The notes beneath the pieces were generated by a model, which was given only the letters and a program-made list of their open reading frames with translations, ran no database searches and was not told the origin of the DNA. From a bacterium (GTDB lineage Bacteria > CG03): a DNA stretch of 32,000 bases. This document shows, one piece after another, positions 6,001 through 30,489 of the stretch. Position numbers and translations under genes: made by a program. Location of the stretch: contig JBDRRS010000007.1 of the NCBI GenBank assembly GCA_043825615.1, positions 1 to 32,000 on the forward strand, given 5' to 3'. Positions within the stretch are counted from its first letter, which is position 1. Every line of letters starts with the position of its first letter.

Positions 6001-6290
6001 ACGTGACCAATTATATAAACATTACCACCGTTATCTACTGTAACTCCATAACCACCATCACTGTTATTCCCAGAACCGTTAAATGTTGTGCTTGAATAAT
6101 TGAATATAGCATGTGCACGTGATATAAATATAAAAAGTAGAAAAACCAGGATGGGAAAAACTATCCTTGAGATTGCCACGCCGGCGGCTCGCAATAACAA
6201 AGAAGGGAAAATACAGCTATGCCTATCGGTAATCAGGGTTCTAATCCTTTTTCTTAATTTACCATATCCTGAAACTATTCTTTTAATCAT
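1..6290 (-). CDS. Giant secreted / cell-surface repeat protein, 5' part only (at least 2096 codons in window; the gene runs off the left edge). Domains in order: signal/anchor, 7-repeat SBBP-type beta-propeller, Fn3-like modules, second propeller-like repeat block, right-handed parallel beta-helix repeats
   Basis: Absent from the ORF track because no stop lies in the window. Hand translation of the minus strand from ATG 6290 gives MIKRIVSGYGKLRKRIRTLITDRHSCIFPSLLLRAAGVAISRIVFPILVFLLFIFISRAHA-IFNYSSTTFNGSGNNSDGGYGVTVDNGGNVYIIGHVYESATNNIWVAKYNSNLILQ... The same frame is stop-free in every stretch I checked (6290-5500, 4440-4500, 3840-3900, 3600-3720, 1980-2040, 1020-1080, 3-60). Motifs: GYGVAVDTSGNVYVTG...IWVAKYNSNL (SBBP-like blades), LKWTAPGDDG and DLTWSAPGDDG (Fn3-like), NNSCYSNSxYGI (PbH1-like beta-helix turns). 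Confidence 0.8.
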   Translation of the reverse strand, partial: MIKRIVSGYGKLRKRIRTLITDRHSCIFPSLLLRAAGVAISRIVFPILVFLLFIFISRAHAIFNYSSTTFNGSGNNSDGGYGVTVDNGGNVYIIGHVYESATNNIWVAKYNSNLILQSSTTFNGYGNNDDFGYGVAVDTSGNVYVTGNVSGGVETDIWVAKYNSNLILQSSITVGGSNSSGYGVAVDTSGNVYVTGSVYYGANKNIWVAKYNSGLILQSSTTINGSGNGNDSGNGIAVDTNGNVYVTGSVYESDFNTWLAKYNSNLILQSSKTIEGSYNDYGYGITVDNNGDVYVTGVFGEPNNPIIWVYKYNSNLIYQTGTTFDGRNAANSTDYGRGVTTDESGNVYVTGNIDNGTNSDIWLAKYNSNLVLQSSMSINGSGNGSDSGYGVAVDTSGNVYVTGSVGEATYNIWLSKHDIGVGGDTTPPADVTSFTATPGDTQATLVWTDPADADLDKILIVRNTNNSFTAPSDGTAYTDGAASGPGGDWCENVAKAAETLLVTSLSNGTKYYFKAYSFDTSTNYATGVSTNVTPAAVAASSTYTFTTGAGTDKWAYDAVDTSNPPTSGPALTGQIEITDYTNIDSANDVYHSSAIYSTNMSFLNCKFTIGEATSSISQIYVEWDGYNTAFNSTSTQIRIWDFNSSAWIFLDGYDGEAEVVLSSAIASNFGNYISGGYLYAYAVGRGAGIGDPPSVLYSDFIKVVVTYTGDATPPSAISNLTALTGDSGGTVKLKWTAPGDDGTGGGNIQGYIVKYATNVIGSGGWDFYDARVSTYMDADGWTPGTFGQEETGRVVSGLNGGTTYYFAIKAYDDASNLGTWPDISVYQSGFASINCARAQDGGGAPGSFTGNFSSAGGADYDGNSTDFAYGVAVDTISGGGPYIYMVGASSNGASGFDWVIIKYDSNGNKIASAVYDGDAHGHDRAYAVAVTPAGEVFVAGYESNATDTDIRVIKFDSSLVLVSSAVYDSTYADAAYGIAISPYGEIVVVGATNNGANNDYIIRRYNFSLGFLGSETLNGAANGDDVANAVAIDSNGNVIVTGESSNGADSDYFTVKYNAILDTLISSVTHAGPSSMDDSAQGVAVNSTDDIIVTGWIWDGADRDIFTIKYDNALSVLSSATYGNAINNDAARAVAVDGQNNVIVAGYQLNGSYNDYVTLKYSADLSTIFSSATYDSSYDDSVKGVAVGVSSAVYVTGYVSNSGTTGDTDFATMRYYLAGDSDPGPPAAVSDLAAYTGLSEGEVDLTWSAPGDDGWTDPLPAGSQFRIQYATYSTPVWMYQSAQVIKSTSGVSPTTQVSYTVTGLNAGATYYFKIWHADEVPNWSELSNGATAHAQVPQGGIWKSIQGGDWAAGAIWDKGSPPNPASVVEISHTVTFNMFNAECSSVTVYDFGTLQFDGAVSTRSLTIAGNLKIMGGVTGGKFLMPPNTGYISTLKIKCASAGQYGIIVQNGGVFDVRGNSMNFWRTTLSVQANSAQNQLTTTDSTGWKLGDVVTIGASSLSNTTEERTITLISGNVITLNSTLSVNHSAGAEVVNLLRNCVITSATSTYKAYIRNLSQTEANFNMKYVEASYLGVNSSGKYGITFDGSGTMGKINYCSIYNGGYDGIFFNSTSSNTITNNSCYSFYDGILLNNGVNNTLNNNSCYSNSQFGIHLLNTSSNTLSNNGCYSNSSYGIRVDNSSNNIFDNNSCYSNTSGIYFANTSNANVVDGNSCYLNSATGIYFYGSSSGTVINNSCYSNSEYGILVYYNSDSNTISNNSCYLNTFHGIFLFDSFNNTLSNNRCYSNSSGFRLNNGSNNIFINNSCYSNSQYGIFTRNSADNLVVDCKLGKEGNNTSGDIGYEAGFVSKLILKNCNLYSPTKVETSGIDTAGSYLISYNQDGSTGTTKIWGDYNIPSGSTGTFNYAGLLYVSAATQPNSTLKGTGSISSPQTSDGKTLTEFWEVKCTDASATSIFSVKRGTGNVLLLDTPSNAQELSEYTSSDRGVSFTVQTGDYQIGDAFYFVTVSSSNDAGVQKIIEFSSSTVGTRLNVEVGGTITMEGTPAEPTISTSSASGGYYGFASSGTMNASNYKFFNLNSEGLKLQGTAVDVVDLSSGT
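760..1500 (-). repeat. About 10 tandem 66-69 nt coding repeats (parallel beta-helix turns) inside the giant gene
   Basis: Translated units: NNSCYSNSQFGIHLLNTSSNTLS / NNGCYSNSSYGIRVDNSSNNIFD / NNSCYSNTSGIYFANTSNANVVD / GNSCYLNSATGIYFYGSSSGTVI / NNSCYSNSEYGILVYYNSDSNTIS ... The recurring 'gagtaacaac' / 'gagtagcaac' strings are visible on the plus strand. Confidence 0.8.
5050..6110 (-). repeat. Seven tandem coding repeats of about 146-163 nt (propeller blades) inside the giant gene
   Basis: The core accagttacatagacattaccactggtatctactgcaactccata recurs at about 5082, 5238, 5401, 5549, 5703, 5850 and 6005. The copies at 5082, 5703 and 5850 are identical over 45 nt. Confidence 0.85.
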
Positions 6291-6522: not shown

Positions 6523-6738
6523 TTATACTGATACCGGCGCAAGACTAAATACGCGCGCAAACTTCGTTGCTCTCCGGAGGTCGCCTTCTCGTAAAGATTC
6601 TCTCACCTCATCCAACTTTTGGGCATCTTCGAGAGAGAGATACGGCGACCAACCATCTCCCGTGTCAAGAATTTCCACATCAACTTCTGCGGCATACTCA
6701 CCTTCGCGCACCAGTTTAACATGATGTCTCTTTGTCAT
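6523..6738 (-). CDS. Small acidic partner protein of the DUF4258-like gene (putative antitoxin-like, 71 aa)
   Basis: ATGA start/stop overlap with the upstream gene (6735-6738). The sequence ...[53 protein letters not shown] resembles the small proteins I recall encoded next to DUF4258 genes. Confidence 0.5.
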
Positions 6739-7073
6739 ACCCGCCTCCTCGTGAAATTATTCGTCCACATATTCGCATCTGGTCTATATGCTGTTACGAC
6801 TACGGCAGGAGAAGACGCACCTTTAGGAATTCCCCAAACCACATGAATCGGACGTGCATCTCTGTCTTTTTCCAAGACAAGAACACACGGACCCTTATGA
6901 TATTCAGGATAATCTTCTACCACAATCCCATTATTCACACCCGTTATTATATCTTTTACGAAAATACCGTCTTCTGCTATCTCATCGTAGCCATGATCGG
7001 AGACCTTAATCTCACGCCTTGCCACTAACTCTTTGATTCTTGCAAACATTTTCACTTTCACCGGTTTAAACAT
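6735..7073 (-). CDS. DUF4258-like protein (putative toxin component, 112 aa; alternative start ATG 7049)
   Basis: [60 protein letters not shown] matches the DUF4258 pattern (xSxHAxxxMxxRgIs..ev..vi..G.iiE.Yp.d...ps.Lvlg......piHvV). Confidence 0.55.
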
Positions 7074-7782: not shown

Positions 7783-9693
7783 TCAAAAACTGTAGTACAG
7801 GCGGAAAAGGACGCCGGAAGAATCGTAATCGTCCGAATCGTCCTTCGTTTTGTTCCCTTCAAAAGTGTAGCCGCCCGTCAGAGAAAGATTTTTCTTCACC
7901 TTGTAAGTCACTTCGGCGGAGTAATTCGTCGTGTCCGTTAAAATGTCCTCTGCGGAAAGAGGCGTCGGCAGTTTTTCCCTTGTGGTGAGCGACCCGTATA
8001 TGAAAAAACCTAAGTCGCGGGTTATGCTGATGTTTGAGCCGAGCGAAAAAGACGTTATTTCGTCCTCGGAACAGTCGTTAAGATTTTTTGTATTATTTGC
8101 GGTATATCCGAGGTCAACGGAAACCGCGGCAATTATTTTACCCGAATATGTCACCGAAAACCCGTTCGTATCCAGGTCATTGCCGGTCGCGGTGGATGCA
8201 TAATTCCGGAACTGCGAGCGCGAAAAATTTGCGGCGACCACCTGGTTTTTGAAACAATAATTAATCCCGCAGCTGAGACCCGCTGTTTCGTTGTTCAGCA
8301 CCGTCAAGGAACTTCCCTCAACTTTGTTTATGCTGGATGCCGCGCTGATTCCGGGAAGGCCCGAAGGCGTAAGCTGTATGCCGCCCTGCAAAATTGTCTG
8401 GTCCGTCGTAACCACTTCGGGGTCGTTGTCAAGATTATCTTCGGTCGCCTGGTATCCGCAATTCAATCTCAAAAATGCAACAGGATAATAATTAAGAGAG
8501 GTGTCCATGCCTGCCCTGTCGGGATAAATTCCCGGGCTTGCTAAATTCAGGAAATCGGGTTCTATTCTCTGATATTTGCCGCGCACATCAAAGGTCTTGC
8601 GGTAAACCCGCATTTCAAATCTGTAGGCCGTTCCCGGCGTTGACGCGCTGTTTTCATAAGACAGCGACGACGGGTTATAGAAATTTTCCTGACGGCCGCT
8701 GCGGGCGTACTCCCCCTGCACATTCAGGAAAGAACACGACCACTGGAGTTCGGAACTCATAACGGTGTTATCCACCGCCTGATTGGAAGGGCCGGGATTG
8801 CTGACGGAACTTTCCGAATCATACGTCGTCACGCCGGATACTTTTAGACCGAAGTCGGCGGGCAATTTTACTTTTGCGCTCATGCCTCCCGTATATCTCG
8901 CATACACGCCGTTGGTTGAGGCGTCGCCCTCCGCCGCCTCCTGCGTCCTTATGTAACACCCCGAAAAATCGGTATAATCCGTCCTGTAATTCAGATTCGT
9001 CCCGCGTCCTGTAAGAGAATAAATTGACAAAGGAGAAAAATCGGGCATGACGTCTCCTGCGGACAACTTATACCTGTCTGAAAAAACCGAAAGAAAAAGC
9101 ATATCAAGATCGAAACTGTCGTCTTCCGTTGAGTACGCATTCGAGTTGAAAATCAGAGTTTTCCCGTAAATTCTTCCTAAAAGATTCGTCGCCAGAGACC
9201 CCTGATAACCGCTCCTCTGCGTATTTTTATACGATAAAGAAACATTGCCGTTCAGAAAAACGGGCCGCACCGGTTTTTTCTCCAGCGCCGACGCCTTTAC
9301 ATTAAAATCGTAAAAATCACTCGTCAGGATGTTCTGCCCTTTTTTGTAAAGCATCACGCGATACCGGTACCTCCCCGTATAGGAAGAGGGTATTCCGTAA
9401 GTTACAAGCAGGAGCGTCGAACCGCCGGGCTGCACTTCCCCGCTTATGTTTTCCGGCGGCGTTTTCTGAATGTAATTACCCTCCGAATCAAACAGTTCAA
9501 TGCGGCAGTTTACATCTGCCGGCGGCCATTTTACCGTCTCCATATTCAGAAGAATAACCTGAAAAGTAATGTTTTCGCCCGCTTTGGCGGGGTCGGGAGC
9601 GGCGACGGAGAGCTGTATCTGCGCCGGCGACTGGGCGAAAATAATACGGGCAAGAAAAAAAACGCACAAAAAAATATAAAATCTGTTCTTCAT
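7783..9693 (-). CDS. Outer-membrane beta-barrel protein with an N-terminal Ig-like domain (636 aa); last gene of the stator operon
   Basis: Signal peptide MKNRFYIFLCVFFLARIIFA-QSP. An all-beta domain of about 110 aa follows (ITFQVILLN...RYRYRVMLYKKG). The remainder is long and rich in alternating aromatic/Gly residues and ends ...GVLFRLYYSF, the aromatic C-terminal residue typical of OMPs. There is a 2-nt gap to the upstream gene. Confidence 0.7.
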   Translation of the reverse strand: MKNRFYIFLCVFFLARIIFAQSPAQIQLSVAAPDPAKAGENITFQVILLNMETVKWPPADVNCRIELFDSEGNYIQKTPPENISGEVQPGGSTLLLVTYGIPSSYTGRYRYRVMLYKKGQNILTSDFYDFNVKASALEKKPVRPVFLNGNVSLSYKNTQRSGYQGSLATNLLGRIYGKTLIFNSNAYSTEDDSFDLDMLFLSVFSDRYKLSAGDVMPDFSPLSIYSLTGRGTNLNYRTDYTDFSGCYIRTQEAAEGDASTNGVYARYTGGMSAKVKLPADFGLKVSGVTTYDSESSVSNPGPSNQAVDNTVMSSELQWSCSFLNVQGEYARSGRQENFYNPSSLSYENSASTPGTAYRFEMRVYRKTFDVRGKYQRIEPDFLNLASPGIYPDRAGMDTSLNYYPVAFLRLNCGYQATEDNLDNDPEVVTTDQTILQGGIQLTPSGLPGISAASSINKVEGSSLTVLNNETAGLSCGINYCFKNQVVAANFSRSQFRNYASTATGNDLDTNGFSVTYSGKIIAAVSVDLGYTANNTKNLNDCSEDEITSFSLGSNISITRDLGFFIYGSLTTREKLPTPLSAEDILTDTTNYSAEVTYKVKKNLSLTGGYTFEGNKTKDDSDDYDSSGVLFRLYYSF

Positions 9694-9695
9694 CT

Positions 9696-10400
9696 TTATG
9701 CGATAAAAGCAATCCCTGCAAAAATAAAAGCGGGAAACAAAACGCTTCCGAGAATCCTGTTGAACACGGGAAAATTAAAATCATATCTCTTCAGAGCTGC
9801 GGCCGAGCAGAGAAACAAAACAAGCGGGCCCGCGAACACGTTTCCCCCGCAGTCGGCCCAGATATTCCTTCTCACGAGGATAAAGAAAAAAAGAGCGCTT
9901 CCGGAAATCAGCAGCAAAATTATTCTTGAAACATTAAAACCTGCGCCGGAAAAAACATGGACCGCATGATAAAGCGCCTCGGATTTGTAAAAAAGAAAAC
10001 TGAAAACCGCTATAAAAACGCCCGCTGTGACATAGAAATAATTCAATTTGAGATGAACTTTGAGAACGCGTAAATAGAAATTGTATAAAATTTTCTTGAT
10101 GTCGCGCTTCTCCGCCTTTTGCTCGGAGGTTTTAAGAAGCCGTTTCTTAAAATTGTCGATAACCGGAGACGTAACCTCGTAAGACATCACCTCGCGGAGT
10201 TCTTTATCCGTTGACTCATCCCCCGAAGAGATGGATTCCATCGCGCGCCGGCGCTCTTCGCCGGCTTTTTTCGTGTCATCCGCCCGGCGGGCCAGCGACG
10301 ACTGCAGAACACCCGCCTTCTTTTTTATAATACCCTGAATTTTCCCGCCGAAAATGGCAATTCCGCAAAGAACAATAACAAAAACTACTCTGAATTTCAT
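9696..10400 (-). CDS. Polytopic inner-membrane protein, no recognised family (234 aa)
   Basis: N-terminal TM (FRVVFVIVLCGIAIFGG), a charged segment of about 90 aa, then about 4 C-terminal TM helices. Stop/start junctions are 2 nt on both sides. Confidence 0.6.
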   Translation of the reverse strand: MKFRVVFVIVLCGIAIFGGKIQGIIKKKAGVLQSSLARRADDTKKAGEERRRAMESISSGDESTDKELREVMSYEVTSPVIDNFKKRLLKTSEQKAEKRDIKKILYNFYLRVLKVHLKLNYFYVTAGVFIAVFSFLFYKSEALYHAVHVFSGAGFNVSRIILLLISGSALFFFILVRRNIWADCGGNVFAGPLVLFLCSAAALKRYDFNFPVFNRILGSVLFPAFIFAGIAFIA

Positions 10401-10402
10401 AA

Positions 10403-10711
10403 TTACATCAAACCCGCCGTCCTGCCCACGTCATGGATAAAAGCCAAACCGTTGCCGGGTTTATCAAGTTTCCCGACGGCAACAATCCTGTCGAAGACCT
10501 CATCAACACGCTCGCCGGGAACAACCGTCATAAAGACCTCTTTTTCCGGATTTATGAAAGCCCTCCTGAAAAAACCGAGTTTCTGCCTGACCCCCGTTCC
10601 CCGCGCGTAGAAAATCGTCGCGCCCGAAACATTCATTTTCAAAATTTCCTTCACAATTTTATTGGCTTTTCCCCTGTCCACAACGCACGTAATCAATTTC
10701 AGATTCTCCAT
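10403..10711 (-). CDS. P-II-like (GlnB-fold) small signalling protein, copy 2 (102 aa)
   Basis: It aligns by eye to GlnB topology: b1 KLITCVV, a1, b2 GATIFYARGTG, a short T-loop-like VRQKLGFFRRAFINPEK, b3 EVFMTVV, a2, b4 GLAFIHDV. It is a paralogue of the adjacent gene. Confidence 0.6.
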   Translation of the reverse strand: MENLKLITCVVDRGKANKIVKEILKMNVSGATIFYARGTGVRQKLGFFRRAFINPEKEVFMTVVPGERVDEVFDRIVAVGKLDKPGNGLAFIHDVGRTAGLM

Positions 10712-10770: not shown

Positions 10771-11085
10771 TTAATCCCTCTTGTAAAACCCGAACGCCTT
10801 CTCCACGTCCTGAACAAAAACAAAACCCCTCGCCGTTTCCTTCAGATTGGCAAGTTCAATAATTCTGCCGAACATATCATCCGTTTTTTCCTCCGGCACA
10901 ACCGTCATAAAGACATCTTTTTCCGGCTCTATCAACCTTCCCTTAAGCCCGATTTTCTCCCTCACTCCCGTTCCGACGCCGCGGAAACTCGTCACGCCAG
11001 AAATGCCCATTTTCAAAATTTCCTTTATTATACCGTCCGCTTTTCCCTGCTCTACAATGCACGTTATCAACTTATACTTTTCCAT
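10771..11085 (-). CDS. P-II-like (GlnB-fold) small signalling protein, copy 1 (104 aa)
   Basis: MEKYKLITCIVEQGKADGIIKEILKMGISGVTSFRGVGTGVREKIGLKGRLIEPEKDVFMTVVPEEKTDDMFGRIIELANLKETARGFVFVQDVEKAF follows the same b-a-b-b-a-b pattern as GlnB (MKKIEAII...GMTVTEVKGFGRQKG...KIEIVV...GKIFVFDV). Confidence 0.6.
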   Translation of the reverse strand: MEKYKLITCIVEQGKADGIIKEILKMGISGVTSFRGVGTGVREKIGLKGRLIEPEKDVFMTVVPEEKTDDMFGRIIELANLKETARGFVFVQDVEKAFGFYKRD

Positions 11086-11098: not shown

Positions 11099-11140
11099 TC
11101 AGGGCGGCGGGAGGCTTGCCCCGTTGGGGGTGGCGTCCAT
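11099..11140 (-). promoter_or_regulatory. Intercistronic micro-ORF MDATPNGASLPPP* (13 codons) between the TPR gene and P-II copy 1
   Basis: Its ATG (11140-11138) shares one base with the TPR TAA stop (TAATG). It ends CCG CCG CCC TGA, followed by TAAGGAGGAAGAT and then ATG 11085. It is homologous to the element at 14202-14228. Confidence 0.35.
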
Positions 11141-12012
11141 TACCGCAGACCTCCCTTCTTTCTTTTCCTTTCCTGCTTCTCCAGCGATTTAAGGAACTTT
11201 TTTATGTCCTTATTATCAGGATTTATCTTCAGCGCATCTTCCCAGTTTTTTTTCGCCGCGGAAAAATTTTTAAGCGCGTAATAAGCCGAGCCCCTTCTCA
11301 TCAGGGCAAGCTCCTTGTTTTCGTCCAGCGCCAGAGCTCTGTCGCAGGCAATAATCGCCCCCGTATAATCCGCCTTATAAATGGAATCCAGCGAACTCTG
11401 GAGCAGCTGATGCAGCAAATCCATTCCTTCTATGAGTTTTATCTTGGACCTTTCTTCGGGATAAACGCTTTCAAAATAAGAAAGAATGCCGGTTATCTGT
11501 TCCCGCCGGCGGTCGTCCTTATTTATCTGTCCCGCGTATATCAGCGCGTCAAAAATCAAACCCGGTTTTTTCTCCAGATACGCCACGATGCCTTTTCTCA
11601 CATACTGCAAGACCTTATCCTGACCGGAAGAGTCCTTTACCAGCGAAGAAATTTTTTCAAGTTTTTCTTTTTTTTCAGCGACGCCGGGATAAGTCGGGTC
11701 AATGTCCATTATGCGTTTAGCCGTATCGGAAGCCGCAAACCACCTGCCTGCCATTATCTGTTCTTCAAACGCCCTGACTTTCGGATTGAGTTCGTCCTCT
11801 ATCTTCTGTCTGATGAACTTTATCATCTTTAACGGCGGTGTCTGCTCCGGGTCAATTTCAAGAATTCTCTGCCAGCAGCGTATTGCATCGCTGTATTTCC
11901 CCGCCGTGTAATATTTTACGGCGGAATTATACAGACCTTTTATGTCTTCTCCGGCAAAAGCAATAATGGGGACGGTTCCTAATATGCACAATCCCACCAA
12001 TTTCTTAAACAT
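11140..12012 (-). CDS. Periplasmic TPR-repeat protein (about 290 aa)
   Basis: Signal peptide MFKKLVGLCILGTVPIIAFA-GE. TPR-like helices follow (YNSAVKYYTAGKYSDAIRCWQRILEIDPEQ; MRRGSAYYALKNFSAAKKNWEDALKINPDN). The track start at 12015 is TTG, and ATG at 12012 is more likely. Confidence 0.8.
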   Translation of the reverse strand: MFKKLVGLCILGTVPIIAFAGEDIKGLYNSAVKYYTAGKYSDAIRCWQRILEIDPEQTPPLKMIKFIRQKIEDELNPKVRAFEEQIMAGRWFAASDTAKRIMDIDPTYPGVAEKKEKLEKISSLVKDSSGQDKVLQYVRKGIVAYLEKKPGLIFDALIYAGQINKDDRRREQITGILSYFESVYPEERSKIKLIEGMDLLHQLLQSSLDSIYKADYTGAIIACDRALALDENKELALMRRGSAYYALKNFSAAKKNWEDALKINPDNKDIKKFLKSLEKQERKRKKGGLR

Positions 12013-12064
12013 CAATCGCCAAACTCCATTAAAATCATCTCCTCGGATAATTAGGAACCGTCCC
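11969..12064 (-). promoter_or_regulatory. Perfect 15-bp long-range stem (GGGACGGUUCCUAAU / AUUAGGAACCGUCCC) closing a 66-nt loop that contains the TPR gene SD and start codon
   Basis: Plus-strand 12050-12064 attaggaaccgtccc is the exact reverse complement of 11969-11983 gggacggttcctaat. The 5' arm begins with the last base of the upstream TAG stop (12066-12064). The 3' arm lies in TPR codons about 10-15. Confidence 0.5.
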
Positions 12065-12726
12065 TAATTCTTACTAATTCTTAAAATGCTTATTTCAATG
12101 CGGCGGTTCTGAGCCCGTCCTGATGCGGCGGCGTTATCCGCAACGGGATAATATTCGCCGAAACCGTAAGCGGAAAATCTTCCCGGATGTATTTTTTCAA
12201 CATCAATAAAATATTTTATAACGCTGAATGCCCGGAGGGTTGAAAGTTCGAAATTGCCGCCGGGCAGCTGCCTGAACGAAATATTATCGGTGTGCCCCGC
12301 AACATTTATTTTATTATCCGTTCCTTTTAAGACCTCTGCGACTTTATGCAAAGTCAGATGACTGCTTTTTTTAAGGTCGGAAGAACCCGAATCAAAAAGA
12401 ACGGGGCTCTCCATCATTATTCTTATTTTCCGCGCATCCATTTTGATGACGCCTTCGCCGTCCCTGAATATCTCCGATATTTTTTCAGCCATTTCAACAT
12501 CCTTCATAGAACTTTTTTCCCGCGAAACACCCGCCTGGAGACGCGCGATAACACCTTCGTATCTGACCCCCGACTTCAATGAAATGACATAAAGTATCAG
12601 AAAAAAAATCATACAGAGAAGCATCATCGTGCCGTAAGGCGTTTTCCACGAAGAGGGATCAAAACCCTTCCCGTATTTTACCGCCCTGTCGGTATGCCTT
12701 CTCCCTGAGCCTGCAATCACGCTCAT
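12064..12726 (-). CDS. MotB-like OmpA-domain protein lacking the conserved channel aspartate (220 aa)
   Basis: N-terminal TM WKTPYGTMMLLCMIFFLILY aligns with the neighbour's WLTVFCDMTTNLMLFFLLLY, with Thr at the Asp position. The C-terminal OmpA/MotB fold is present: VLFDSGSSDL...VAGHTDNISF...NFELSTLRAFSVIKYF...GFGEYYPVADNAAASGRAQNRRIEI. ATGA overlap with the upstream gene. Confidence 0.8.
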   Translation of the reverse strand: MSVIAGSGRRHTDRAVKYGKGFDPSSWKTPYGTMMLLCMIFFLILYVISLKSGVRYEGVIARLQAGVSREKSSMKDVEMAEKISEIFRDGEGVIKMDARKIRIMMESPVLFDSGSSDLKKSSHLTLHKVAEVLKGTDNKINVAGHTDNISFRQLPGGNFELSTLRAFSVIKYFIDVEKIHPGRFSAYGFGEYYPVADNAAASGRAQNRRIEISILRISKN

Positions 12727-13391
12727 TCAATATCCTGCTTGAGCAGCACAATTTCAATTCGCCGGTTTTTCTGGCGCGACGTCGGGGTCTCGTTGGAAAA
12801 CCTTGGAAAATACTCTCCGTATCCGGCGGCGACAAACCTTTCCGGCGGGAAACCCCTGCCGATAAAATAATCGATAACGTTTACCGCCCGGCGGGCGGAA
12901 AGTTCCCAGTTCGAACGGAAAAGAGCGCTCTTAATCGGCACATTATCCGTGTGTCCTTCGACAATCACTTTATCGTCCGTCATAGATAAAGTTCTCGCTA
13001 TTTCATTCAGTAATTTCTTCGTTTCATCTTTTACCAGCGCGCCGCCGGAATCAAAAAGCACCGGCGTGTTCAGGACAAGCCGTATCTGGCTTTCATTAAC
13101 CTCCAGGGTGGAGTATTTTTTAAGATTGCCTTTCTGAAGCAGTTCTTCCAAATTGCTCTGCGTTTCATCCTCCGCAAACTTTTTCAGAACATTATCCGCC
13201 TTATGTCTTAAGACCACATCCTTCTTCCCGGCGCTGCTCAGCGCGGAATGCATCTGGCGCTGCTGCGATTGGGAAAGGCGCGTAAAACCGTACAGCAGGA
13301 GAAAAAAAAGCATAAGATTCGTCGTCATATCGCAGAACACGGTAAGCCAGATGGGTTCTCTTTGAACTTTCCTGAACGCCTTAAAAATCAT
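12723..13391 (-). CDS. motB: MotB-type stator subunit with conserved TM aspartate and OmpA-like peptidoglycan-binding domain (222 aa)
   Basis: The TM WLTVFCDMTTNLMLFFLLLY carries the Asp (compare the canonical MotB motif ..yADlmTlLl.FF). C-terminal VLFDSGGALV...VEGHTDNVPI...NWELSARRAVNVIDYF...GYGEYFPRFSNETPTSRQKNRRIEI. Confidence 0.85.
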   Translation of the reverse strand: MIFKAFRKVQREPIWLTVFCDMTTNLMLFFLLLYGFTRLSQSQQRQMHSALSSAGKKDVVLRHKADNVLKKFAEDETQSNLEELLQKGNLKKYSTLEVNESQIRLVLNTPVLFDSGGALVKDETKKLLNEIARTLSMTDDKVIVEGHTDNVPIKSALFRSNWELSARRAVNVIDYFIGRGFPPERFVAAGYGEYFPRFSNETPTSRQKNRRIEIVLLKQDIE

Positions 13392-13418: not shown

Positions 13419-14186
13419 TCATTTCTTCCGCTTCTCCCTGATGCGTTTTGAGAGAAACGCCTCAAGACGGTGCAAGGTTATGGACGGGACTTCCTGATTG
13501 AGTATTGATTCTATTCCTTCGGCTATCAGTTCCTTGGCAAGAATCTCATCGTTCGAGTACTCTCCGAGTTTCAGCGAAGCGGGTAAAAAAAGAAAATTCG
13601 CGCCGAAAATACCGTAAAATGTCGTCGTAACGGCAATAGCCATGGAAGCACCCATACTCGCCGGGTCCTGCAGATTTTTCAGAACCTGAATAACCCCTAT
13701 AAGCGTGCCCAGTAAACCGAATATGGGAGAAAAAGTAGCCATTGCCTGCAAGACCCCCGATGTCCTTTCATGCCTCTGGGCGACGGAAAAAATTTCCTGC
13801 CTCATGTTTTCAAGAATTATTTCCTTTTCCACGCCGTCGGATATTTTTTTAACGTTGGCGGAGAGGAATCTGTTCTTTGCCTGAACCGGCGAATCAGACA
13901 GAACCATAAAACCGTTTCTCTTAGCCGCGGCGGACAGAACCGCAATGTCTTTTACGAGTTTGTTTATATCCGTCGGAGGAGGAGGAAAAAGTATGAGTTT
14001 AACCGCAGACGGAACCTGCTTTATGCTGCGGAAAGGAAATGCAATTAACGTCGAACCGAGAGTCCCTCCGAACACAAGAATAGCGGCATCCAAATTAAAA
14101 AGGAGATAAACGACATCCCCGTGAAGCATGACCAAATAAACGGCGCCGGTTCCGAGAGCAAAACCAAGAACAGTCATCAGGTCCAT
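13419..14186 (-). CDS. motA: MotA/PomA-type stator channel protein (255 aa, 4 TM)
   Basis: Flagellar-type architecture: two N-terminal TMs, a large cytoplasmic loop, then TM3/TM4 ATFSPIFGLLGTLIGVIQ and MAIAVTTTFYGIFGANFLFLPASLKL carrying both conserved prolines. MotA-type C-terminal tail AEGIESILNQEVPSITLHRLEAFL. Confidence 0.9.
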   Translation of the reverse strand: MDLMTVLGFALGTGAVYLVMLHGDVVYLLFNLDAAILVFGGTLGSTLIAFPFRSIKQVPSAVKLILFPPPPTDINKLVKDIAVLSAAAKRNGFMVLSDSPVQAKNRFLSANVKKISDGVEKEIILENMRQEIFSVAQRHERTSGVLQAMATFSPIFGLLGTLIGVIQVLKNLQDPASMGASMAIAVTTTFYGIFGANFLFLPASLKLGEYSNDEILAKELIAEGIESILNQEVPSITLHRLEAFLSKRIREKRKK

Positions 14187-14229: not shown

Positions 14230-15630
14230 TTAACCCCGCTTTCCCCGCGGCGGGGCGTCTTCGTCCGCCTGCGGCGTGGCGAGCAAACCGTCTTTTCTCA
14301 ATTTGTCCGCAACGCGGGCGAGCGCTTTTTTATCTTCTCTTAACCTCGCGGGCCCGGGAGATGCGCCAAGTTCTATTTCTTCCTTCAGACGCGTCGCAAT
14401 GCCCTCCGGAAGTTTCTCCAGAATGCCGTTTCTTACGCTTTCTTCCAGCGTCCGGAGCACGTTCGCAAACGCCACCGGCGTGAAACTCCGGCTCAGCAGA
14501 AGAATATCCCCGGAAGTCATATCCGCAAGAGACCCCGCGCGAAAAACAGCCGACCTCAACTCATCCGCAAAAAGCGAGTCGCTCTGCGCTATGAAATCGA
14601 GATAAGAATCCATTTCTTCGTCGCCCAAACCCTCCAGAATTTCTTTAACGACTTCTTTCCCGCCGACCATAAAATCCATCTTCTGCCTGAGATGCTCTTC
14701 CCATTTAAGAACCTCGTCCGGGGGCAGAGTTCTCGTCTGCGCAAGTTTTGACAATGCCTCGCGGGCCTGCGCAGGCTCCAAACCCGACAGGACTTTATTC
14801 GCCACCTGCGGAGCGTAATTGATCAAAACGGCAATGTTTTCGGGCTTTTCCTTCTTAAGAAGAAAAAGAAGTTTATCCGTATTTTCCTCGTTTACAAAAG
14901 AAAAATGCTTTTTGACGCCCTCTCTTTCTCCGCCGGCAGCGCCCATCCCTGCAGCCGGAGCGGCTGCGCTCACAGAGGAACTAAAAGCCGCCGCTGTTTC
15001 GCTTTTTTTCAAAGAACTTTCAAGCGTTTCGGATATAATCCCCGCCGCGCGGGGAAACACGCGCATTCCGAAAACAAAAAGAACCGCTATCAGAATAACG
15101 GCAAGACCTGAAAACAGCAGACCCCATAAATGCGGCGGATATATGATATCCGACCACTTGAAGGGATTTTCTCTGAAATTCATTTTCTTGATGATGAGCG
15201 CATCGCCGCGGGCGGCCTCAAGCCCGAGGACGCTCGTCGAGACCTCTCTTATTATATTAACCATGCTTTCGGGAAGGCCGTTGTCCACGATAATCTGCGC
15301 AGTGAGTTTCTTTATGTTTTTCGCCGTGTCTCCGAGGTCAAGACTCGCCAGCCCGAGGCCGAGTTTCTCCTGCAGGGGAACCCCCGGCAGGACGACCGCC
15401 TCCTCATCCTCATCTTCCGAACTGCTGCTTATCAACTGAACGTTTATAACGATTAACAGCTTGTCCGTCCCTGTTATTTCGGTCAATATCCGTCTTAACC
15501 TTTCCTCAAGATTCTTTTCTATGGCGATTTTTGTTTCTATGTCGGAACCTTGTTTTGCAAAGGCATTGCCCGGCAGCGCAGGAAGGAAAAAACAGAAGAG
15601 CGAGAAAAGAATAATGGGGACGGTTCCCAT
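14230..15630 (-). CDS. Bitopic membrane protein (466 aa): signal/TM, periplasmic domain of about 140 aa resembling a FliF/YscJ ring-building motif, TM, Ala/Ser linker, cytoplasmic FliG-like middle and C-terminal domains
   Basis: aa 1-25 MGTVPIILFSLFCFFLPALPGNAFA; aa 168-192 LWGLLFSGLAVILIAVLFVFGMRVF. aa 243-450 align by eye with FliG. LLKKEKPENIAVLINYAPQVANKVLSGLEP matches fLqnEHPQtiAliLsyLdpekAaevLseLpe. MVGGKEVVKEIL matches the Gly-Gly linker ..GGvkavaeIL. ILEKLPEGIATRLKEEIELGASPGPARLREDKKALARVADKLRKDGLL matches fLsNMSkRAaemLrEDLealGPVRlsdVeeAQqkIvei.RrLeeeGei. The periplasmic part (LEERLRRILTEITGTDKLLIVINVQL...LTAQIIVDNGLPESMVNIIREVSTSVLGLEAARGDALIIKKM) resembles FliF/YscJ RBM strings. Confidence 0.65.
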   Translation of the reverse strand: MGTVPIILFSLFCFFLPALPGNAFAKQGSDIETKIAIEKNLEERLRRILTEITGTDKLLIVINVQLISSSSEDEDEEAVVLPGVPLQEKLGLGLASLDLGDTAKNIKKLTAQIIVDNGLPESMVNIIREVSTSVLGLEAARGDALIIKKMNFRENPFKWSDIIYPPHLWGLLFSGLAVILIAVLFVFGMRVFPRAAGIISETLESSLKKSETAAAFSSSVSAAAPAAGMGAAGGEREGVKKHFSFVNEENTDKLLFLLKKEKPENIAVLINYAPQVANKVLSGLEPAQAREALSKLAQTRTLPPDEVLKWEEHLRQKMDFMVGGKEVVKEILEGLGDEEMDSYLDFIAQSDSLFADELRSAVFRAGSLADMTSGDILLLSRSFTPVAFANVLRTLEESVRNGILEKLPEGIATRLKEEIELGASPGPARLREDKKALARVADKLRKDGLLATPQADEDAPPRGKRG

Positions 15631-15635
15631 TACTT

Positions 15636-16097
15636 TTAAAACTCCTCCGCAACAACACCCGCTATCATCCTGACCGTTTCAATGTCCTGCTGGGAAAGGA
15701 CTTCCTTCGACGTGAGTTTTTTCGCGTTAATAACGCCGATTGCCCTGCCGTTTTTTATCACCGGCACGCTTAAGCCGGAAGTTATATTCTCATACTTTGC
15801 CAAATGCGCAAAACTTCTGTGCTGGGAAACTTCGCCGACGATAAGAAACGGTTTTTTTTCTGAAACGGCGCGGCCGGCGACCCTCTCGCCGACTTTGATT
15901 TTTATCCCGAGTTTCTTGTTCGCGCTCTCGGCGTCGGGTTCTGCTGCCGCCACAATTTCTATCTCATCCGACGTTTCATCCCTGAGCATAAAAGAGCATC
16001 CGTCGGCTTTTATGAAACCGGCAAGAATCTTCAGTGCGACAACAACCACTTTCCTTTTTTCCGCTCCGAGCTTTTCATCCGACACAAAAACAGGCAT
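15636..16097 (-). CDS. Stand-alone GAF-domain protein (about 153 aa); first gene of the operon
   Basis: ILAGFIKADGCSFMLRDETSDEIEIVAAAEPD...GERVAGRAVSEKKPFLIVGEVSQHRSFAHL...ITSGLSVPVIKNGRAIGVINAKK is a typical GAF pattern. The track start at 16136 is TTG. ATG 16097 (MPVFVSDEK) has GAAGGGGG upstream. Confidence 0.75.
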   Translation of the reverse strand: MPVFVSDEKLGAEKRKVVVVALKILAGFIKADGCSFMLRDETSDEIEIVAAAEPDAESANKKLGIKIKVGERVAGRAVSEKKPFLIVGEVSQHRSFAHLAKYENITSGLSVPVIKNGRAIGVINAKKLTSKEVLSQQDIETVRMIAGVVAEEF

Positions 16098-16173
16098 AAC
16101 ACCCCCTTCCCCCCGGCGATTCCGCCGGAGGAACAAGTAAGAATAATCACTTTACTCTTTCCCCGTGAAAGGC

Positions 16174-17049: not shown

Positions 17050-18000
17050 TTATTTAGACGGACTTTCTCCGGGAACAAACGGCGTCGTTACCCTGTCTAT
17101 ATCCATGGGTATCAATGCTATCTCAATCCTTCTGTTTTTCGTTCTCCCCTCTACCGTGTCATTTGTATCAATGGGTTTGGTGTCGGCATATCCTGCCACC
17201 GAAATAAATATTGAGTCAATACCCACTTTGTCTATCAGATATCTGGCTATGTTCGTCGCTCTCGCTGTTGAAAGCTCCCAGTTTGTGGGGTATTTGCCCC
17301 TTAGTTTGGGTCCAATCGGCACATTATCCGTATGTCCTTCAATACGGATTTGTTTGTCTTTGATATTCTTTAAAATATTCCCGACCCTGTTGAGGACCTG
17401 TTTGCCTTCTTTCCGGACTTCAGCCTCTCCCAGCGGAAACATCAGTTTATCCACGATGTTAACCGACAACTTGTCTTTAAGCTGAGTAATTTTTATCTGT
17501 CCGTCCTGCACTTCCTTTTCCATATCCTGGACAAGATTCTCGTATGTTGACTTCAATCTGCCGACTTCGTCTTCTTTTGCTTTTGATACCGCGTCTATAC
17601 TGTCCTGCAGTTCGATATTCATGGCATTCGCAGCGGACAGCTGTTTCTTTAAATCCAATACGGTTTTTTCTTTTTCCCGTTTACTAACGGTAAGGTCCGC
17701 TATCAATTTGTCTTTTTCGCTTTTTTTGGCCTCCAGCACGGATATGAGATTACTGCTGTCTTTCTGCAAAATTGAATACTGCTCTTTGATTTCCGCCGCC
17801 TCAAGTTCGAGTTTCTGTTTCTCGTTAGAGACCGTCTGCAGGCTTTCTTCCGCCTGCTTCAACTTTGTTATAAGTTCGTCATTCCCGTTACGAAGAACTT
17901 CCGTTTCCTCTACTTTCATCCGGTACTTCCCGGTCGTAACGCATCCGACCAAAAAAACGCAAAATAAACCCATGGCTAAATTCTTAACGCTTCTTTTCAT
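17050..18000 (-). CDS. OmpA-family lipoprotein with a long coiled-coil (about 316 aa)
   Basis: Lipobox LVGC in MKRSVKNLAMGLFCVFLVGCVTTG. A heptad-like, Lys/Glu-rich region of about 170 aa follows. C-terminal IEGHTDNVPIG...NWELSTARATNIARYL...GYADTKPIDTNDTVEGRTKNRRIEI. ATG 18000 has AAGGAGAG upstream, whereas the track start at 18018 is TTG. Confidence 0.85.
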   Translation of the reverse strand: MKRSVKNLAMGLFCVFLVGCVTTGKYRMKVEETEVLRNGNDELITKLKQAEESLQTVSNEKQKLELEAAEIKEQYSILQKDSSNLISVLEAKKSEKDKLIADLTVSKREKEKTVLDLKKQLSAANAMNIELQDSIDAVSKAKEDEVGRLKSTYENLVQDMEKEVQDGQIKITQLKDKLSVNIVDKLMFPLGEAEVRKEGKQVLNRVGNILKNIKDKQIRIEGHTDNVPIGPKLRGKYPTNWELSTARATNIARYLIDKVGIDSIFISVAGYADTKPIDTNDTVEGRTKNRRIEIALIPMDIDRVTTPFVPGESPSK

Positions 18001-18286
18001 CTTCTCTCCTTTTAGCAAATTCCAATTGCCCTAAACCTATAAACACCCCTGCACTTTAAAACCGGTTCCATGTGTTTTAGCGGGTAATTGTACTAAATTT
18101 ATGACACATCCAACAAATATTTATTGCTGACATTATCAAATGCCATATACATGTCACCATCGGATAAGATATCATTAACATCAACAGCAATCTCGGTGTC
18201 CATACTACCGTCTGTGCTGACAAAACGGGCGCGTTGACAGTGTTGTTCTTTACTTTATACGATTTTTTGAGATAATATAAAGCGAT

Positions 18287-24645: not shown

Positions 24646-25884
24646 TTATGAAAGTTCAATCCTATCACGCATACCGTGCACAAGATTGGTCATAACCGTA
24701 AGGTAGTCCCTCAGATGGCGCGTTATCAAAAATTGCCCCCTGACAAACTCTCTCGCTTTTTCTCCCATATTCTTTAACTTGTCTTCCCGCTGCAGAAGAT
24801 AGCGCATTCTCAACGCCGCGCCTTCAGGCGTGCTTACAAGAAATCCCGTATGGTGATTGATAACCTGGCATCTGATTCCGCCGGTATCGCCGCCTATCAC
24901 GGGTTTGGACTTCCACATCGCTTCGGTTACGGTTAAACCGAATCCTTCACGCAGGGATTTCTGCAGGATAATATCGGCTCCTCTCTGAAGCGCATTGATC
25001 GTTGTATGCGCGTCCGGCGGCAGAACGAGAACATGCACATCAGGGTCGCTGTTTGCGGCAAGTTTCACTTCGTCAAGAACCCGCGCGCCTTCAGGGTCGT
25101 CGTCCGCAAACCCTCCCGCAAGAATGAGCTGCAGAGGGATAAATTTCTTTGCCATCCGGTAAGCGTGTATCACGCCCACAGGGTCCTTGAATTCATCAAA
25201 CCTGGAAACCTGCAGAACGACGGGACGGGATTTATCTATTTTGAATTTTTTAAAAACAGCGTCAATTTCTTTTTGCGGTAAATCCTTGTTTTTATCGCTT
25301 AACGGGTCTATGCTCGGCGGAATAAGATATTGCGTATGCGGCAGGGTCTGAGCAAAATCCGCTATTGAAAAAACACTGGCATCATACCCTGCTACGTACT
25401 GCTTCAGGTATTTCCAAACTTTCCTTTGGGGATTGCTTACGTCTATATGACATCTCCATATCCATTTTGCTTTTATACCGGGACACAGGGTTTTCATCAT
25501 TGCCGGCTGAGGGTCATGCGCGAATATAATGTCTGCGTCCTTCAGTTTAGGTTTGAGTATTTCCGCGTTTTTCGCGCTGGTATCCTCATACGCTTTCAGC
25601 ATGGCTTCGGTTATTTCCATACTTTTGCCCTGTAAAGCGTTATGGAACCTCTTGGTGCATTCAAAAAAATCCGGATTACCGTTCAAAACTTCCCATGAGA
25701 CCTCAATTCCAAGTTCTTGTTTAAGCGGCACGAGTTTATTTAATATTTCGGCGACGCCGCCGCCGCTTTTTGTGGAATTTATATGCACCACCTTTATTTT
25801 CTGCATGCCTTTCGCAAGCTGCCTGAGATGATTTATTACGTCTTTCCCCGCAGAATCGCCGTATTGTTCAAGTAATGATTTCAT
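24646..25884 (-). CDS. TreT-like GT4 glycosyltransferase (trehalose glycosyl-transferring synthase-like, 412 aa)
   Basis: VVHINSTKSGGGVAEILNKLVPLKQELGIEVSWEVLNGNPDFFECTKRFHNALQG closely resembles the N-terminal signature I remember for archaeal/bacterial TreT. The C-terminal part reads SLREGFGLTVTEAMWKSKPVIGGDTGGI. The actual acceptor is not determinable. Confidence 0.7.
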   Translation of the reverse strand: MKSLLEQYGDSAGKDVINHLRQLAKGMQKIKVVHINSTKSGGGVAEILNKLVPLKQELGIEVSWEVLNGNPDFFECTKRFHNALQGKSMEITEAMLKAYEDTSAKNAEILKPKLKDADIIFAHDPQPAMMKTLCPGIKAKWIWRCHIDVSNPQRKVWKYLKQYVAGYDASVFSIADFAQTLPHTQYLIPPSIDPLSDKNKDLPQKEIDAVFKKFKIDKSRPVVLQVSRFDEFKDPVGVIHAYRMAKKFIPLQLILAGGFADDDPEGARVLDEVKLAANSDPDVHVLVLPPDAHTTINALQRGADIILQKSLREGFGLTVTEAMWKSKPVIGGDTGGIRCQVINHHTGFLVSTPEGAALRMRYLLQREDKLKNMGEKAREFVRGQFLITRHLRDYLTVMTNLVHGMRDRIELS

Positions 25885-25885
25885 T

Positions 25886-30416: not shown

Positions 30417-30489
30417 CGCCCCTGGGGTGACTCGAACACCCGACACCCGGTTTAGGAAACCGGTGCTCTATCCTCTGAGCTACAGGGGC
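30417..30489 (-). tRNA. tRNA-Arg (anticodon CCU), 73 nt, CCA not encoded
   Basis: GCCCCUG-UA-GCUC-AGAGGAUA-GAGC-A-CCGGU-UUCCUAA-ACCGG-GUGUC-GGGUG-UUCGAGU-CACCC-CAGGGGC-G. All four stems pair perfectly. Confidence 0.92.

Follow-up and report, generated by a model that had tools for sequence, protein, structure and literature searches.

In the motor of bacterial flagella, the rotor is built from two polypeptides, the ring protein FliF and the soluble protein FliG, and works with stator units of the MotA5B2 type; flagellar-type stators and FliG are generally taken as diagnostic of flagella. The two rotor proteins have also been joined in the laboratory. Three reports (PMC6079021, PMC10941966, PMC11481574) describe engineered full-length FliF–FliG fusions of Salmonella and Vibrio (e.g., PDB 8z4d and 8z4g) that assemble rings and, therefore, a covalent link between FliF and FliG is compatible with ring formation. 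The protein analysed here, named FliGL, is a natural protein of this kind. Its gene lies on the minus strand of a 32,000-nucleotide (nt) stretch of bacterial DNA (GTDB lineage Bacteria; CG03), positions 1 to 32,000 of contig JBDRRS010000007.1 in assembly GCA_043825615.1, referred to as the window. As judged by sequence comparison, FliGL corresponds to FliF (residues ~240–510) joined to FliG (residues ~108–331).

FliGL has in common with the flagellar rotor the third ring-building motif of FliF (RBM3) with its collar, the second transmembrane (TM) helix of FliF (TM2), the middle and C-terminal domains of FliG (FliG-MC), the Gly–Gly linker and the acidic torque helix, and a flagellar-type MotA and MotB proteins with plug and OmpA domain are encoded alongside it. 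However, it is one polypeptide instead of two, without RBM1, RBM2, the C-terminal peptide of FliF, the N-terminal domain of FliG (FliG_N) and probably TM1. Its EHPQR motif is degenerate, and no FliM/FliN, export-gate, rod, hook or filament genes are found nearby. The FliGL cassette also includes components foreign to the flagellar rotor: a tetratricopeptide repeat (TPR) protein, a barrel of ~26 strands and two MotB paralogues, one of them mostly devoid of the channel Asp. In contrast to soluble FliG, FliGL carries a probable signal peptide and a TM helix. While the engineered fusions are laboratory-made and keep all of the domains, FliGL is natural, has lost the N-terminal two-thirds of FliF together with the whole FliF-C/FliG-N interface, and is found outside flagellar gene clusters. 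The profile of the FliGL family aligns with the 8z4d fusion chain in three stretches (E 6e-46).

The FliGL gene probably marks an undescribed ion-driven machine of the cell envelope. The best reading, to which we give somewhat better than even credence, is a flagellum-related rotor–stator module that works in the envelope without type III secretion. Orphan motAB, fliG and flbD genes are already known in Elusimicrobiota, and all of the cassette parts come from known families. The literature searched describes neither a natural membrane-anchored protein of the FliF-RBM3/FliG-MC type nor the cassette, and the chance that the machine built from these parts represents a new kind of motor in the envelope is substantial.

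Domain Architecture and Topology of FliGL

The gene and the parts of its product, all on the minus strand, are as follows (aa, amino acids).

14230–15630 (−): FliGL fusion protein, 466 aa (Pfam, NCBIfam, AlphaFold2 model, PDB sequence and fold matches)
15556–15630 (−): aa 1–25, N-terminal hydrophobic segment ending AFA-KQ (hydropathy and homologue alignment)
15181–15549 (−): aa 28–150, periplasmic ring-building-motif domain of the FliF RBM3 type (model, Foldseek, family profile, Pfam)
15058–15135 (−): aa 166–191, single TM helix, equivalent of FliF TM2 (hydropathy, model, and a profile match reaching FliF residue 509)
14905–15057 (−): aa 192–242, juxtamembrane helix followed by a disordered Ala/Ser/Gly-rich linker (confidence score pLDDT <50 for aa 209–239; variable in the homologue alignment)
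14671–14904 (−): aa 243–320, FliG middle domain (Pfam, PDB-profile alignment)
14659–14664 (−): aa 323–324, Gly–Gly linker (nearly invariant across the family)
14281–14658 (−): aa 325–450, FliG C-terminal domain (Pfam, profile, Foldseek)
14368–14406 (−): aa 409–421, torque-helix equivalent, PEGIATRLKEEIE (alignment to FliG)

The domain order is, thus, signal peptide, FliF-RBM3-like domain, TM helix, linker, FliG_M and FliG_C. Hydropathy reveals two hydrophobic segments, at aa 1–25 and aa 165–199. The AlphaFold2 model, built on an alignment of 27 sequences (mean pLDDT 71.7), places a TM helix at residues 166–191 and a disordered Ala/Ser-rich linker at residues 209–239. A first description of this gene, made from the letters of the sequence (hereafter the original prediction), had proposed a protein with two TM segments in which an Ala/Ser-rich linker leads into the FliG M and C domains. 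Pfam and the model bear out this architecture and also the second TM segment, whereas the first one is probably a cleaved signal peptide. This is the likelier interpretation of aa 1–25, with a signal anchor as the alternative, because the segment ends in AFA-KQ and all of the aligned homologues show a small-x-small motif at the matching site. With a cleaved signal peptide FliGL would be single-pass and, therefore, its topology is probably closer to that of SctJ (signal sequence and a single C-terminal TM helix) than to that of FliF.

The TM helix is followed by the low-complexity linker, which runs straight into FliG_M, with no trace of the FliG-binding peptide found at the C-terminus of FliF. 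Both halves of the normal FliF-C/FliG-N interface are deleted and the flexible linker stands in their place.

The start codon of FliGL is ATG, with a GGAGG-like motif ~13 nt upstream. A hairpin with a 9-bp stem (AGTAATGGGAACCGTCCCCATTATT) spans this start codon (15634–15610, −); it could affect translation initiation of FliGL or be a product of chance.

The Cytoplasmic Half Is Specific to FliG

Pfam assigns FliG_M (PF14841) to aa 253–319 (33.1 bits, cut-off 25) and FliG_C (PF01706) to aa 347–448 (31.0 bits, cut-off 23.3). The NCBIfam model for fliG, TIGR00207, aligns from model position 108 to 324 of 338 (44.1 bits against a cut-off of 226.7). As the alignment begins only at position 108, the N-domain of FliG is absent, which confirms the fusion without this domain put forward in the original prediction; a sub-threshold FliG_N match over aa 269–350 falls inside the M domain and the M–C helix. 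Among 40 diverse family members, FliG_C was detected in all 40 and FliG_M in 39.

Profile comparisons point in the same direction. A profile of the close family matches T. maritima FliG-MC with E 4.8e-42, and a profile of the broad family, made from the 40 diverse members, does so with E 2.3e-67 over ~220 residues. The hidden Markov model (HMM) alignment to T. maritima FliG pairs EKPEN with EHPQT, MVGG with VGG, VFRAGSL with MFVFEDI and LKEEIEL with LKDELEY. All of the motif correspondences with FliG that had been drawn by eye are reproduced in it, as is the replacement by Gly of the Arg ahead of the acidic pair. Structurally, the FliGL model has thirteen helices at residues 248–446 (pLDDT 77–93), and its 13 best Foldseek matches in the PDB are all FliG (1lkv, E 6e-8). 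The fold of FliG_C in 1qc7 and 8ucs_H is matched with a TM-score of 0.83–0.84 on the target and a root-mean-square deviation of 1.8–1.9 Å.

The N-terminal domain of MgtE shares the armadillo (ARM)-like helical repeat fold with the FliG domains, and a generic MgtE_N/ARM assignment was considered for this half of the protein. It was rejected on Pfam scores and profile E-values: MgtE_N reaches 19.4 bits, under its cut-off of 25.9, and the broad-family profile matches MgtE structures over ~50 residues with E 0.011–0.085, to be compared with 2.3e-67 for FliG. Furthermore, FliGL has neither CBS nor MgtE channel domains.

In FliGL, the FliM-binding EHPQR motif of FliG is degenerate: it reads EKPEN, and of its residues just Glu and Pro are found again in the rest of the family. 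This reduction to E..P fits the absence of FliM.

The Periplasmic Half Is an RBM3-Type Ring-Building Domain

The periplasmic part comprises only ~140 residues. In the model, it consists of a helix (28–53), a strand (58–66), an insert predicted with low confidence (67–105), a second strand (106–116), a helix (121–135) and a third strand (144–150). This is the alpha–beta–beta–alpha–beta order of a ring-building motif, split after the first strand in the same manner as the beta-collar splits FliF RBM3. The insert holds an invariant LPGVP motif, and an RGD motif occupies residues 141–143. Across the broad family E38, P82, G83, R141 and D143 are invariant, and P85, D116, G142, F243, F245 and G323/G324, among others, nearly so.

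Following FliG, the next Foldseek matches of the model are FliF RBM3/S-ring chains (E 4e-4 to 3e-3, TM-score 0.55–0.60 normalised on the target), and then PrgK and EscJ, which are weak. The broad-family profile matches residues 240–509 of Salmonella FliF (E 2.1e-7), residues 418–496 of Vibrio FliF (E 4.7e-8) and SpoIIIAG (E 2.4e-4). The FliF part had been estimated at about one-third of FliF length, which is about right, since the part present is FliF residues ~240–509.

The Pfam family YscJ_FliF_C was matched at E ≤ 1e-3 in 33 of the 40 diverse members, and the same Pfam search found YscJ_FliF (PF01514, RBM1/2) in none of the 40. Taken alone, the FliGL of the window matches YscJ_FliF_C weakly (aa 104–152, 16.7 bits, gathering cut-off 23.8). 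This cut-off is exceeded by several distant members (P0142, P0152 and P0086), of which P0142 covers the whole model (1–147 of 147) with 44.5 bits. Against the full-length fliF model TIGR00206, FliGL scores 13.1 bits (cut-off 129.75). Altogether, the split topology, the Foldseek matches, the FliF profile and the hits to YscJ_FliF_C identify the periplasmic part as an RBM fold.

The same fold is shared with SpoIIIAG and with SctJ, PrgK and EscJ. SpoIIIAG and FliF RBM3 carry the ring-forming insertion and SctJ resembles FliGL in topology, while PrgK and EscJ are similar by fold only. Unlike FliGL, none of these proteins has a cytoplasmic FliG domain or an associated ion motor.

FliGL Is a Widespread Family under Purifying Selection

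A word-indexed search retrieved 27 full-length homologues of 429–483 aa with the same layout; those carrying an organism name are almost all from metagenome-assembled genomes (MAGs) of Elusimicrobiota. An exhaustive HMMER scan of 1.84 billion cluster representatives (50% identity clusters) yielded 415 proteins with an E-value of 1e-30 or lower. Among the 150 best representatives, ~135 fit the profile almost end to end (positions ~5–450), the remainder being mostly truncated entries or matches in two stretches. The family representatives form at least two dozen sub-clades, and the names that NCBI gives to members are only “FliG C-terminal domain-containing protein” or “hypothetical”.

The ratio of nonsynonymous to synonymous substitution rates (dN/dS) of FliGL is 0.37 against a 94%-identical relative (0.23 for the periplasmic domain and 0.26 for FliG-MC) and falls to 0.10–0.12 in more distant pairs. 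FliGL is under purifying selection. A fusion created by a frameshift or by mis-assembly was, therefore, rejected: the architecture recurs in the 27 close homologues, in ~135 of the best 150 representatives and, overall, in hundreds of proteins, and it is under selection. The two outcomes named as refuting the original prediction, a merely generic fold with a periplasmic part unrelated to RBM folds and a frameshift fusion, were thus both checked and neither applies; its interpretation is supported apart from the topology of the N-terminal segment, while the ring and the torque transfer have the standing of proposals.

These data also bear on the idea that FliGL is a decaying, functionless relic of a lost flagellum. 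Flagella have seemingly been lost in the host organisms, and both the EHPQR motif and the channel Asp of the second MotB (see below) are degenerate, as a relic would predict. However, dN/dS values of 0.10–0.37, an architecture and gene order kept down to ~22% identity in more than 130 clusters, and the gain of new fixed partners (TPR protein, outer-membrane barrel, second MotB) speak against decay. The selection data effectively exclude this reading, and we regard it as very improbable.

Some members depart from the common layout. A TPR region is fused after FliG_C without an intervening TM helix, and is hence cytoplasmic, among P0152, P0157, P0086 and P0165; P0109 bears a second FliG_C-like repeat at its C-terminus and P0123 a low-complexity tail of 330 residues. 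One MAG (Elusimicrobia bacterium RIFOXYA2_FULL_39_19) harbours two divergent FliGL systems, at loci L019 and L026, each with its own MotA and two MotB.

Stator Genes and the Rotor–Stator Interface

Three stator genes follow FliGL on the same strand.

13419–14186 (−): 255-aa MotA of the flagellar type, PomA/MotP-like; 43 nt downstream of FliGL (Pfam, NCBIfam, alignment)
12723–13391 (−): MotB1, 222 aa, plug and OmpA-like domain, channel Asp present (FCDMTT) (Pfam, NCBIfam)
12064–12726 (−): MotB2, 220 aa, plug and OmpA-like domain, Thr in place of the channel Asp; 4-nt overlap with MotB1

The adjacent gene had been named MotA in the original prediction, and the alignments establish it as a full-length, flagellar-type MotA. 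Its alignment with the solved structures of flagellar MotA and PomA runs end to end (E 1e-43 to 1e-29): residues 1–246 pair with residues 1–246 of 9lu9 MotA (E 1e-43), and PomA is matched with E 2e-30. Its top-scoring NCBIfam models, those for MotP, MotA and PomA, are matched with E 1e-42 to 1e-48, all under their equivalog cut-offs. The “flagellar ion transporter” (FIT) clade is defined by a large MotA loop and a MotB with plug and OmpA domain (PMC12505986), and the cassette MotA and MotB1 display these features: a large cytoplasmic loop that can be aligned end to end, plug, OmpA domain and TM Asp.

The conservation of these genes was followed in 28 loci, 21 from Elusimicrobiota-type genomes and seven from other sub-clades. 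MotA and MotB adjoin FliGL in 25 of them and lie within ~3–6 kb in two more. Within the cassette, conservation is highest for MotA (46–80% identity, dN/dS 0.10). The channel Asp of MotB1, together with plug and OmpA domain, is present in 16 of the 16 loci examined, and MotB1 is probably proton-competent. In MotB2 this position is Thr in the window (PYGTMMLL) and Thr, Asn or Ser in most loci (L001–L021), with Asp retained in just L014, L019 and L021; compared with the closest relative, MotB2 has a dN/dS of 0.62, the highest in the cassette. The sequences suggest a MotB1/MotB2 heterodimer with one protonatable Asp.

To compare the interface, E. coli MotA and FliG sequences were used as a numbering ruler only; on it R90 and E98 fall where expected. 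The landmarks, R90 and E98 in MotA and R281, D288 and D289 in FliG, show an uneven conservation. The R90-equivalent is Lys or Arg in 22 of 22 cassettes. On the rotor side, E417 and E418 of FliGL occupy the positions of D288 and D289, and at least one acidic residue is kept in this pair in every FliGL examined; E418 and the nearby R414 are nearly invariant in the close family. The second pair has a different fate. Gly410 stands at the R281 position, where nearly all of the members have Gly or Ala (Asp in P0027), with an Arg or Lys 2–4 residues past it in most members. At the E98-equivalent of MotA, the Elusimicrobiota-type cassettes have Ser, Gln or His, and Glu occurs only in L022, L025 and L028. 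Across the cassettes, MotA E98 and FliG R281 were checked for a clean covariation of their charges, and none was found. As far as the alignments go, one of the two classical stator–rotor charge pairs is kept and the other is missing.

Flagellar-Type Genes outside Flagellar Gene Clusters

In the 32-kb window, the Pfam search found no rod, hook, export-gate, FliM/FliN or flagellin families. Likewise, neither these nor other flagellar structural families appear in the 28 Pfam-annotated loci, whose flanks add up to ~0.5 Mb. The flagellum-related exceptions are FlbD and a FlgD_ig Ig domain inside giant proteins. The FlbD gene stands directly before MotA at 14999–15214 in L025 and at 19288–19488 in L028; the MotA proteins of both loci have Glu at the E98-equivalent.

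A survey of 219 Elusimicrobiota genomes reported complete flagellar sets in only a few of them; most of the free-living members lack flagellar structural genes and still encode numerous “enigmatic” motAB, flbD and fliG homologues (bioRxiv 10.1101/2022.07.08.499144). In a tree-wide survey, rotor proteins without filament genes were present in 11% of non-motile species (PMC12199754). The FliGL family would account for the orphan genes of the first survey (10.1101/2022.07.08.499144) and may explain part of the filament-less rotor proteins of the second (PMC12199754).

It could be argued that FliGL is an accessory or alternative rotor part of a genuine flagellum, such as a second ring or a specialised stator scaffold. 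Every domain of the protein is flagellar, FlbD precedes MotA in L025 and L028, and a few Elusimicrobiota do have complete flagellar sets. Nevertheless, no other flagellar gene except FlbD accompanies it in the window or in the flanks of the 28 loci, most free-living Elusimicrobiota carry the orphan genes without the structural ones, and one MAG has two paralogous systems. Moreover, FliGL is devoid of RBM1/RBM2, which house the export gate, and of the FliM-binding motif. On balance, a flagellar accessory role seems quite improbable.

The Conserved Gene Cassette

The neighbours of the FliGL and stator genes in the window are the following.

15636–16136 (−): GAF-domain protein, 5 nt upstream of FliGL; kept in the nearest clade
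11140–12015 (−): 291-aa TPR protein, signal-like segment at the N-terminus; conserved in the cassette (Pfam, locus comparison)
10771–11085 and 10403–10711 (−): two small P-II-like proteins, lineage-specific (Pfam, locus comparison)
9696–10400 (−): 234-aa membrane protein of no known family, kept in the nearest clade only (Pfam, hydropathy, locus comparison)
7783–9693 (−): OM636, 636 aa, with signal peptide, Ig-like domain and an outer-membrane barrel of ~26 strands, C-terminal YSF (model pLDDT 81)
3–6290 (−): giant secreted or surface-type open reading frame (ORF) of at least 2096 aa that runs off the window (beta-helix/NosD, SBBP beta-propeller, fn3)

The genes from GAF to OM636 (GAF, FliGL, MotA, MotB1, MotB2, TPR, two P-II-like, 234-aa membrane protein, OM636) form a row on one strand, in which neighbours overlap or are a short distance apart. 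FliGL is probably co-transcribed with MotA, MotB1, MotB2, the TPR protein and the outer-membrane barrel, and the GAF protein is likely a regulator. OM636 has no sequence matches in the PDB. Its best fold match there is MtrB (6r2q_B, E 2e-12), the 26-strand sheath of the Mtr complex, followed by ushers, LptD and TonB-dependent transporters. The giant ORF begins with a signal or TM segment.

The order FliGL–MotA–MotB1–MotB2–TPR is found in the 21 Elusimicrobiota-type loci wherever the contig is long enough, with two exceptions: an extra TPR-like ORF follows MotA in L013, and one long MotB-like ORF replaces the pair in L017. A TPR gene belongs to the cassette in every locus long enough to reveal one, and most loci with sufficient flank have an OM636 homologue close by, either upstream or downstream of FliGL. 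Among the other sub-clades, L023 and L027 have the same cassette. In L026, MotA–MotB–MotB is on the opposite strand, accompanied by a 538-aa TPR protein and a 2329-aa giant. L022 comprises a 515-aa barrel + TPR protein, FliGL, MotA, one MotB, a neighbour of 16,931 aa and a PilZ protein. In L025 and L028, FliGL carries a C-terminal TPR and has a ~1000-aa protein of unknown type and FlbD–MotA–MotB nearby.

The 515–521-aa proteins of L022 and L024 are informative about the TPR protein. Their C-terminal half is homologous to the TPR protein of the window (E 6e-21) and their N-terminal half is a UPF0164/PorV-like barrel; this fusion argues that the TPR protein acts in the periplasm with an outer-membrane barrel. 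The similarity between the cassette TPR and the TPR fused to FliG_C is that of TPRs in general (pairwise E ~1e-6) and was given no weight.

Within 10 kb of most cassettes there are giant ORFs that encode beta-helix, SBBP, G8 and fn3 domains, often directly after the TPR gene. Some of their segments are up to 60% identical between loci whose FliGL proteins are only 32–35% identical. From this proximity, we infer that the giant protein is a candidate cargo or output of the cassette.

Regulatory genes are frequent companions of other cassettes: PilZ in L022, GGDEF in L028, response regulators in L005 and L027, and Roadblock/LC7 in L024. Together with GAF and the two P-II-like proteins of the window, the PilZ, GGDEF and response-regulator genes make it conceivable that FliGL is a membrane-tethered docking, brake or sensor partner of MotAB that performs no mechanical work. 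The stator–FliG contact would gate ion flow, or would report the state of the envelope or of the proton-motive force to regulators such as GAF, P-II, PilZ or the response regulator. The MotB2 without channel Asp and the lost E98/R281 pair are compatible with such a role. Still, complete plug and OmpA anchors, the R90-like charge and the acidic torque helix are features of force transmission, the conserved barrel and TPR partners point to an envelope-spanning structure, and MotA is the best conserved protein of the cassette. A role without mechanical work is, thus, considered unlikely.

Comparison with Other Envelope Motors

Ion motors related to MotAB also operate outside flagella. According to one report, SiiAB, a MotAB-like pair, is encoded with, and needed for, the giant non-fimbrial adhesin SiiE of the type I secretion system (T1SS) of Salmonella pathogenicity island SPI-4 (10.1101/641415). 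However, the partner of SiiAB is an ABC-type T1SS, that system includes no homologue of FliG or FliF, and no T1SS genes were seen in the FliGL loci.

A second precedent is offered by the gliding-type machineries, namely GldLM with the type IX secretion system (T9SS) and the Myxococcus AglRQS–Glt system. In common with the FliGL cassette, both combine an ion motor of the 5:2 type with TPR proteins, barrels and very large surface adhesins, and AglRQS has one A and two B subunits. These motors belong to the ExbB/TolQ-like (“generic”) branch, use a periplasmic arm of the B subunit and have no FliG-like rotor. In contrast, the stator of the FliGL cassette is of the flagellar branch and faces a cytoplasmic FliG torque helix.

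This resemblance leads to a different geometry for the FliGL system. Without forming any ring, peptidoglycan-anchored MotA5B2 pinions could drive FliGL molecules or filaments laterally in the inner membrane as along a linear track, and the motion would be relayed by the periplasmic domain and the TPR protein to outer-membrane or surface proteins, in the manner of Agl–Glt or GldLM-type gliding. FliG_N, FliM and FliN, which set the C-ring geometry, are absent, and the FliGL linker is long and flexible. The single MotA and the two MotB genes mirror the subunits of AglRQS; gliding machineries typically include outer-membrane barrels, TPR proteins and giant proteins of the surface type; and an MglB-like Roadblock/LC7 gene stands beside the L024 cassette. 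What speaks for a ring instead is the specificity of the periplasmic homology: it is to FliF RBM3, collar insert included, and to SpoIIIAG, both of which assemble into closed rings of 30–34 subunits. That the LPGVP and RGD motifs are invariant agrees with an oligomer interface that is fixed, and FliG-MC stacking is known from rings only. We judge lateral movement along a track to be improbable.

A Proposed Rotor–Stator Module of the Cell Envelope

In the rotor–stator module that we favour, the periplasmic RBM domains would oligomerise into an inner-membrane ring that tethers an array of cytoplasmic FliG-MC domains; this step is drawn from the homology to the ring-forming FliF RBM3 and to the self-stacking FliG-MC. 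FliGL could, in this way, provide a minimal membrane ring with a torque-receiving surface. Units of the MotA5B2 type would anchor to peptidoglycan through the OmpA domains of MotB. Ion flow would turn the MotA pentamer, and the conserved basic residue of the MotA loop would push the acidic torque helix of FliGL, a contact proposed because the interface residues are conserved. The ring would then turn or be dragged with no export gate, rod, hook or FliM/FliN switch. More speculatively, the TPR protein could relay the work to the ~26-strand barrel and, possibly, the giant beta-helix/fn3 proteins could receive it as well, with secretion, surface movement or gliding as the output; GldLM/T9SS–SprB, AglRQS–Glt and SiiAB–SiiE would be the analogues. 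The full version of this proposal, in which the cassette builds an unrecognised, widespread, envelope-spanning rotary ion machine that exports, tensions or moves the giant proteins, is tentative, and we consider it somewhat less likely than not.

Several observations weigh against the proposed module. The ring, the contact between MotA and FliGL and the rotation itself are all taken from homology. The degenerate EHPQR and the absence of FliG_N mean that the usual determinants of C-ring geometry are missing, and the flexible tether of 50 residues may fail to keep FliG-MC in a torque-competent array. At the interface, the MotA E98–FliG R281 pair is absent in the window and shows no clean covariation across clades. 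The Asp-less MotB2 of most lineages misfits the standard stator cycle with two Asp, and the distant locus L024 has no MotA within 10 kb. With regard to the partners, the TPR is located on the cytoplasmic FliG_C end in some members, while the separate TPR protein looks periplasmic; the link to the giants comes from their adjacency. Finally, the apparent absence of a flagellum in this organism relies on flanking regions and on the phylum survey of one preprint.

The module would be significant in several respects. It shows a FIT-type stator and a FliG torque domain fixed in a conserved unit without export apparatus, rod or switch. As a naturally minimal rotor (RBM3, TM helix and FliG-MC), FliGL could make the stator–rotor interface and the needs of ring assembly directly testable. 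It also bears on whether there can be a useful FliF/FliG/MotAB torque module in the absence of type III secretion, which is a key step in scenarios of flagellar origin and of reductive evolution. If the proposal is correct, non-flagellated phyla such as Elusimicrobiota would possess a new form of surface motility or adhesin deployment, and FliGL would represent a living minimal FliF–FliG/MotAB torque module, with a bearing on the origin of the flagellar motor or on the ways in which it can be dismantled.

Other Features of the Window

The cassette was also compared with known defence systems. Zorya and other such systems were rejected, since PADLOC gave no assignment for MotA, FliGL, the TPR protein or OM636 and no Zorya-like ZorA; only generic ZorB/MotB matches, due to the OmpA domain, were obtained.

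Promoter-like sites are, overall, no more common in the window than in shuffled sequence. A perfect TTGACA-17-TATAAT is located just downstream of OM636 (7710–7682, −), an 11/12 match precedes the giant ORF (6366–6337, −) and a 10/12 match precedes the GAF gene (16202–16174, −).

Near the cassette, a 322-aa protein (17050–18018, −) combines a signal-like segment, a long coiled-coil-like region rich in Lys and Glu and an OmpA domain; it is not kept beside the cassette in other loci. One tmRNA and one tRNA gene are situated amid genes of mobile or toxin type, encoding Fic/DOC, a ParE-like toxin, DUF4258 and a Macro-domain protein (28956–29302, 30417–30489, 29468–30223, 30491–30871, 6735–7073 and 28319–28828, all −). 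Finally, a pair consisting of a TreT-type glycosyltransferase and a DUF5752 protein lies near the cassette both in the window (24646–26560, −) and in the distant locus L023 (4823–6713).

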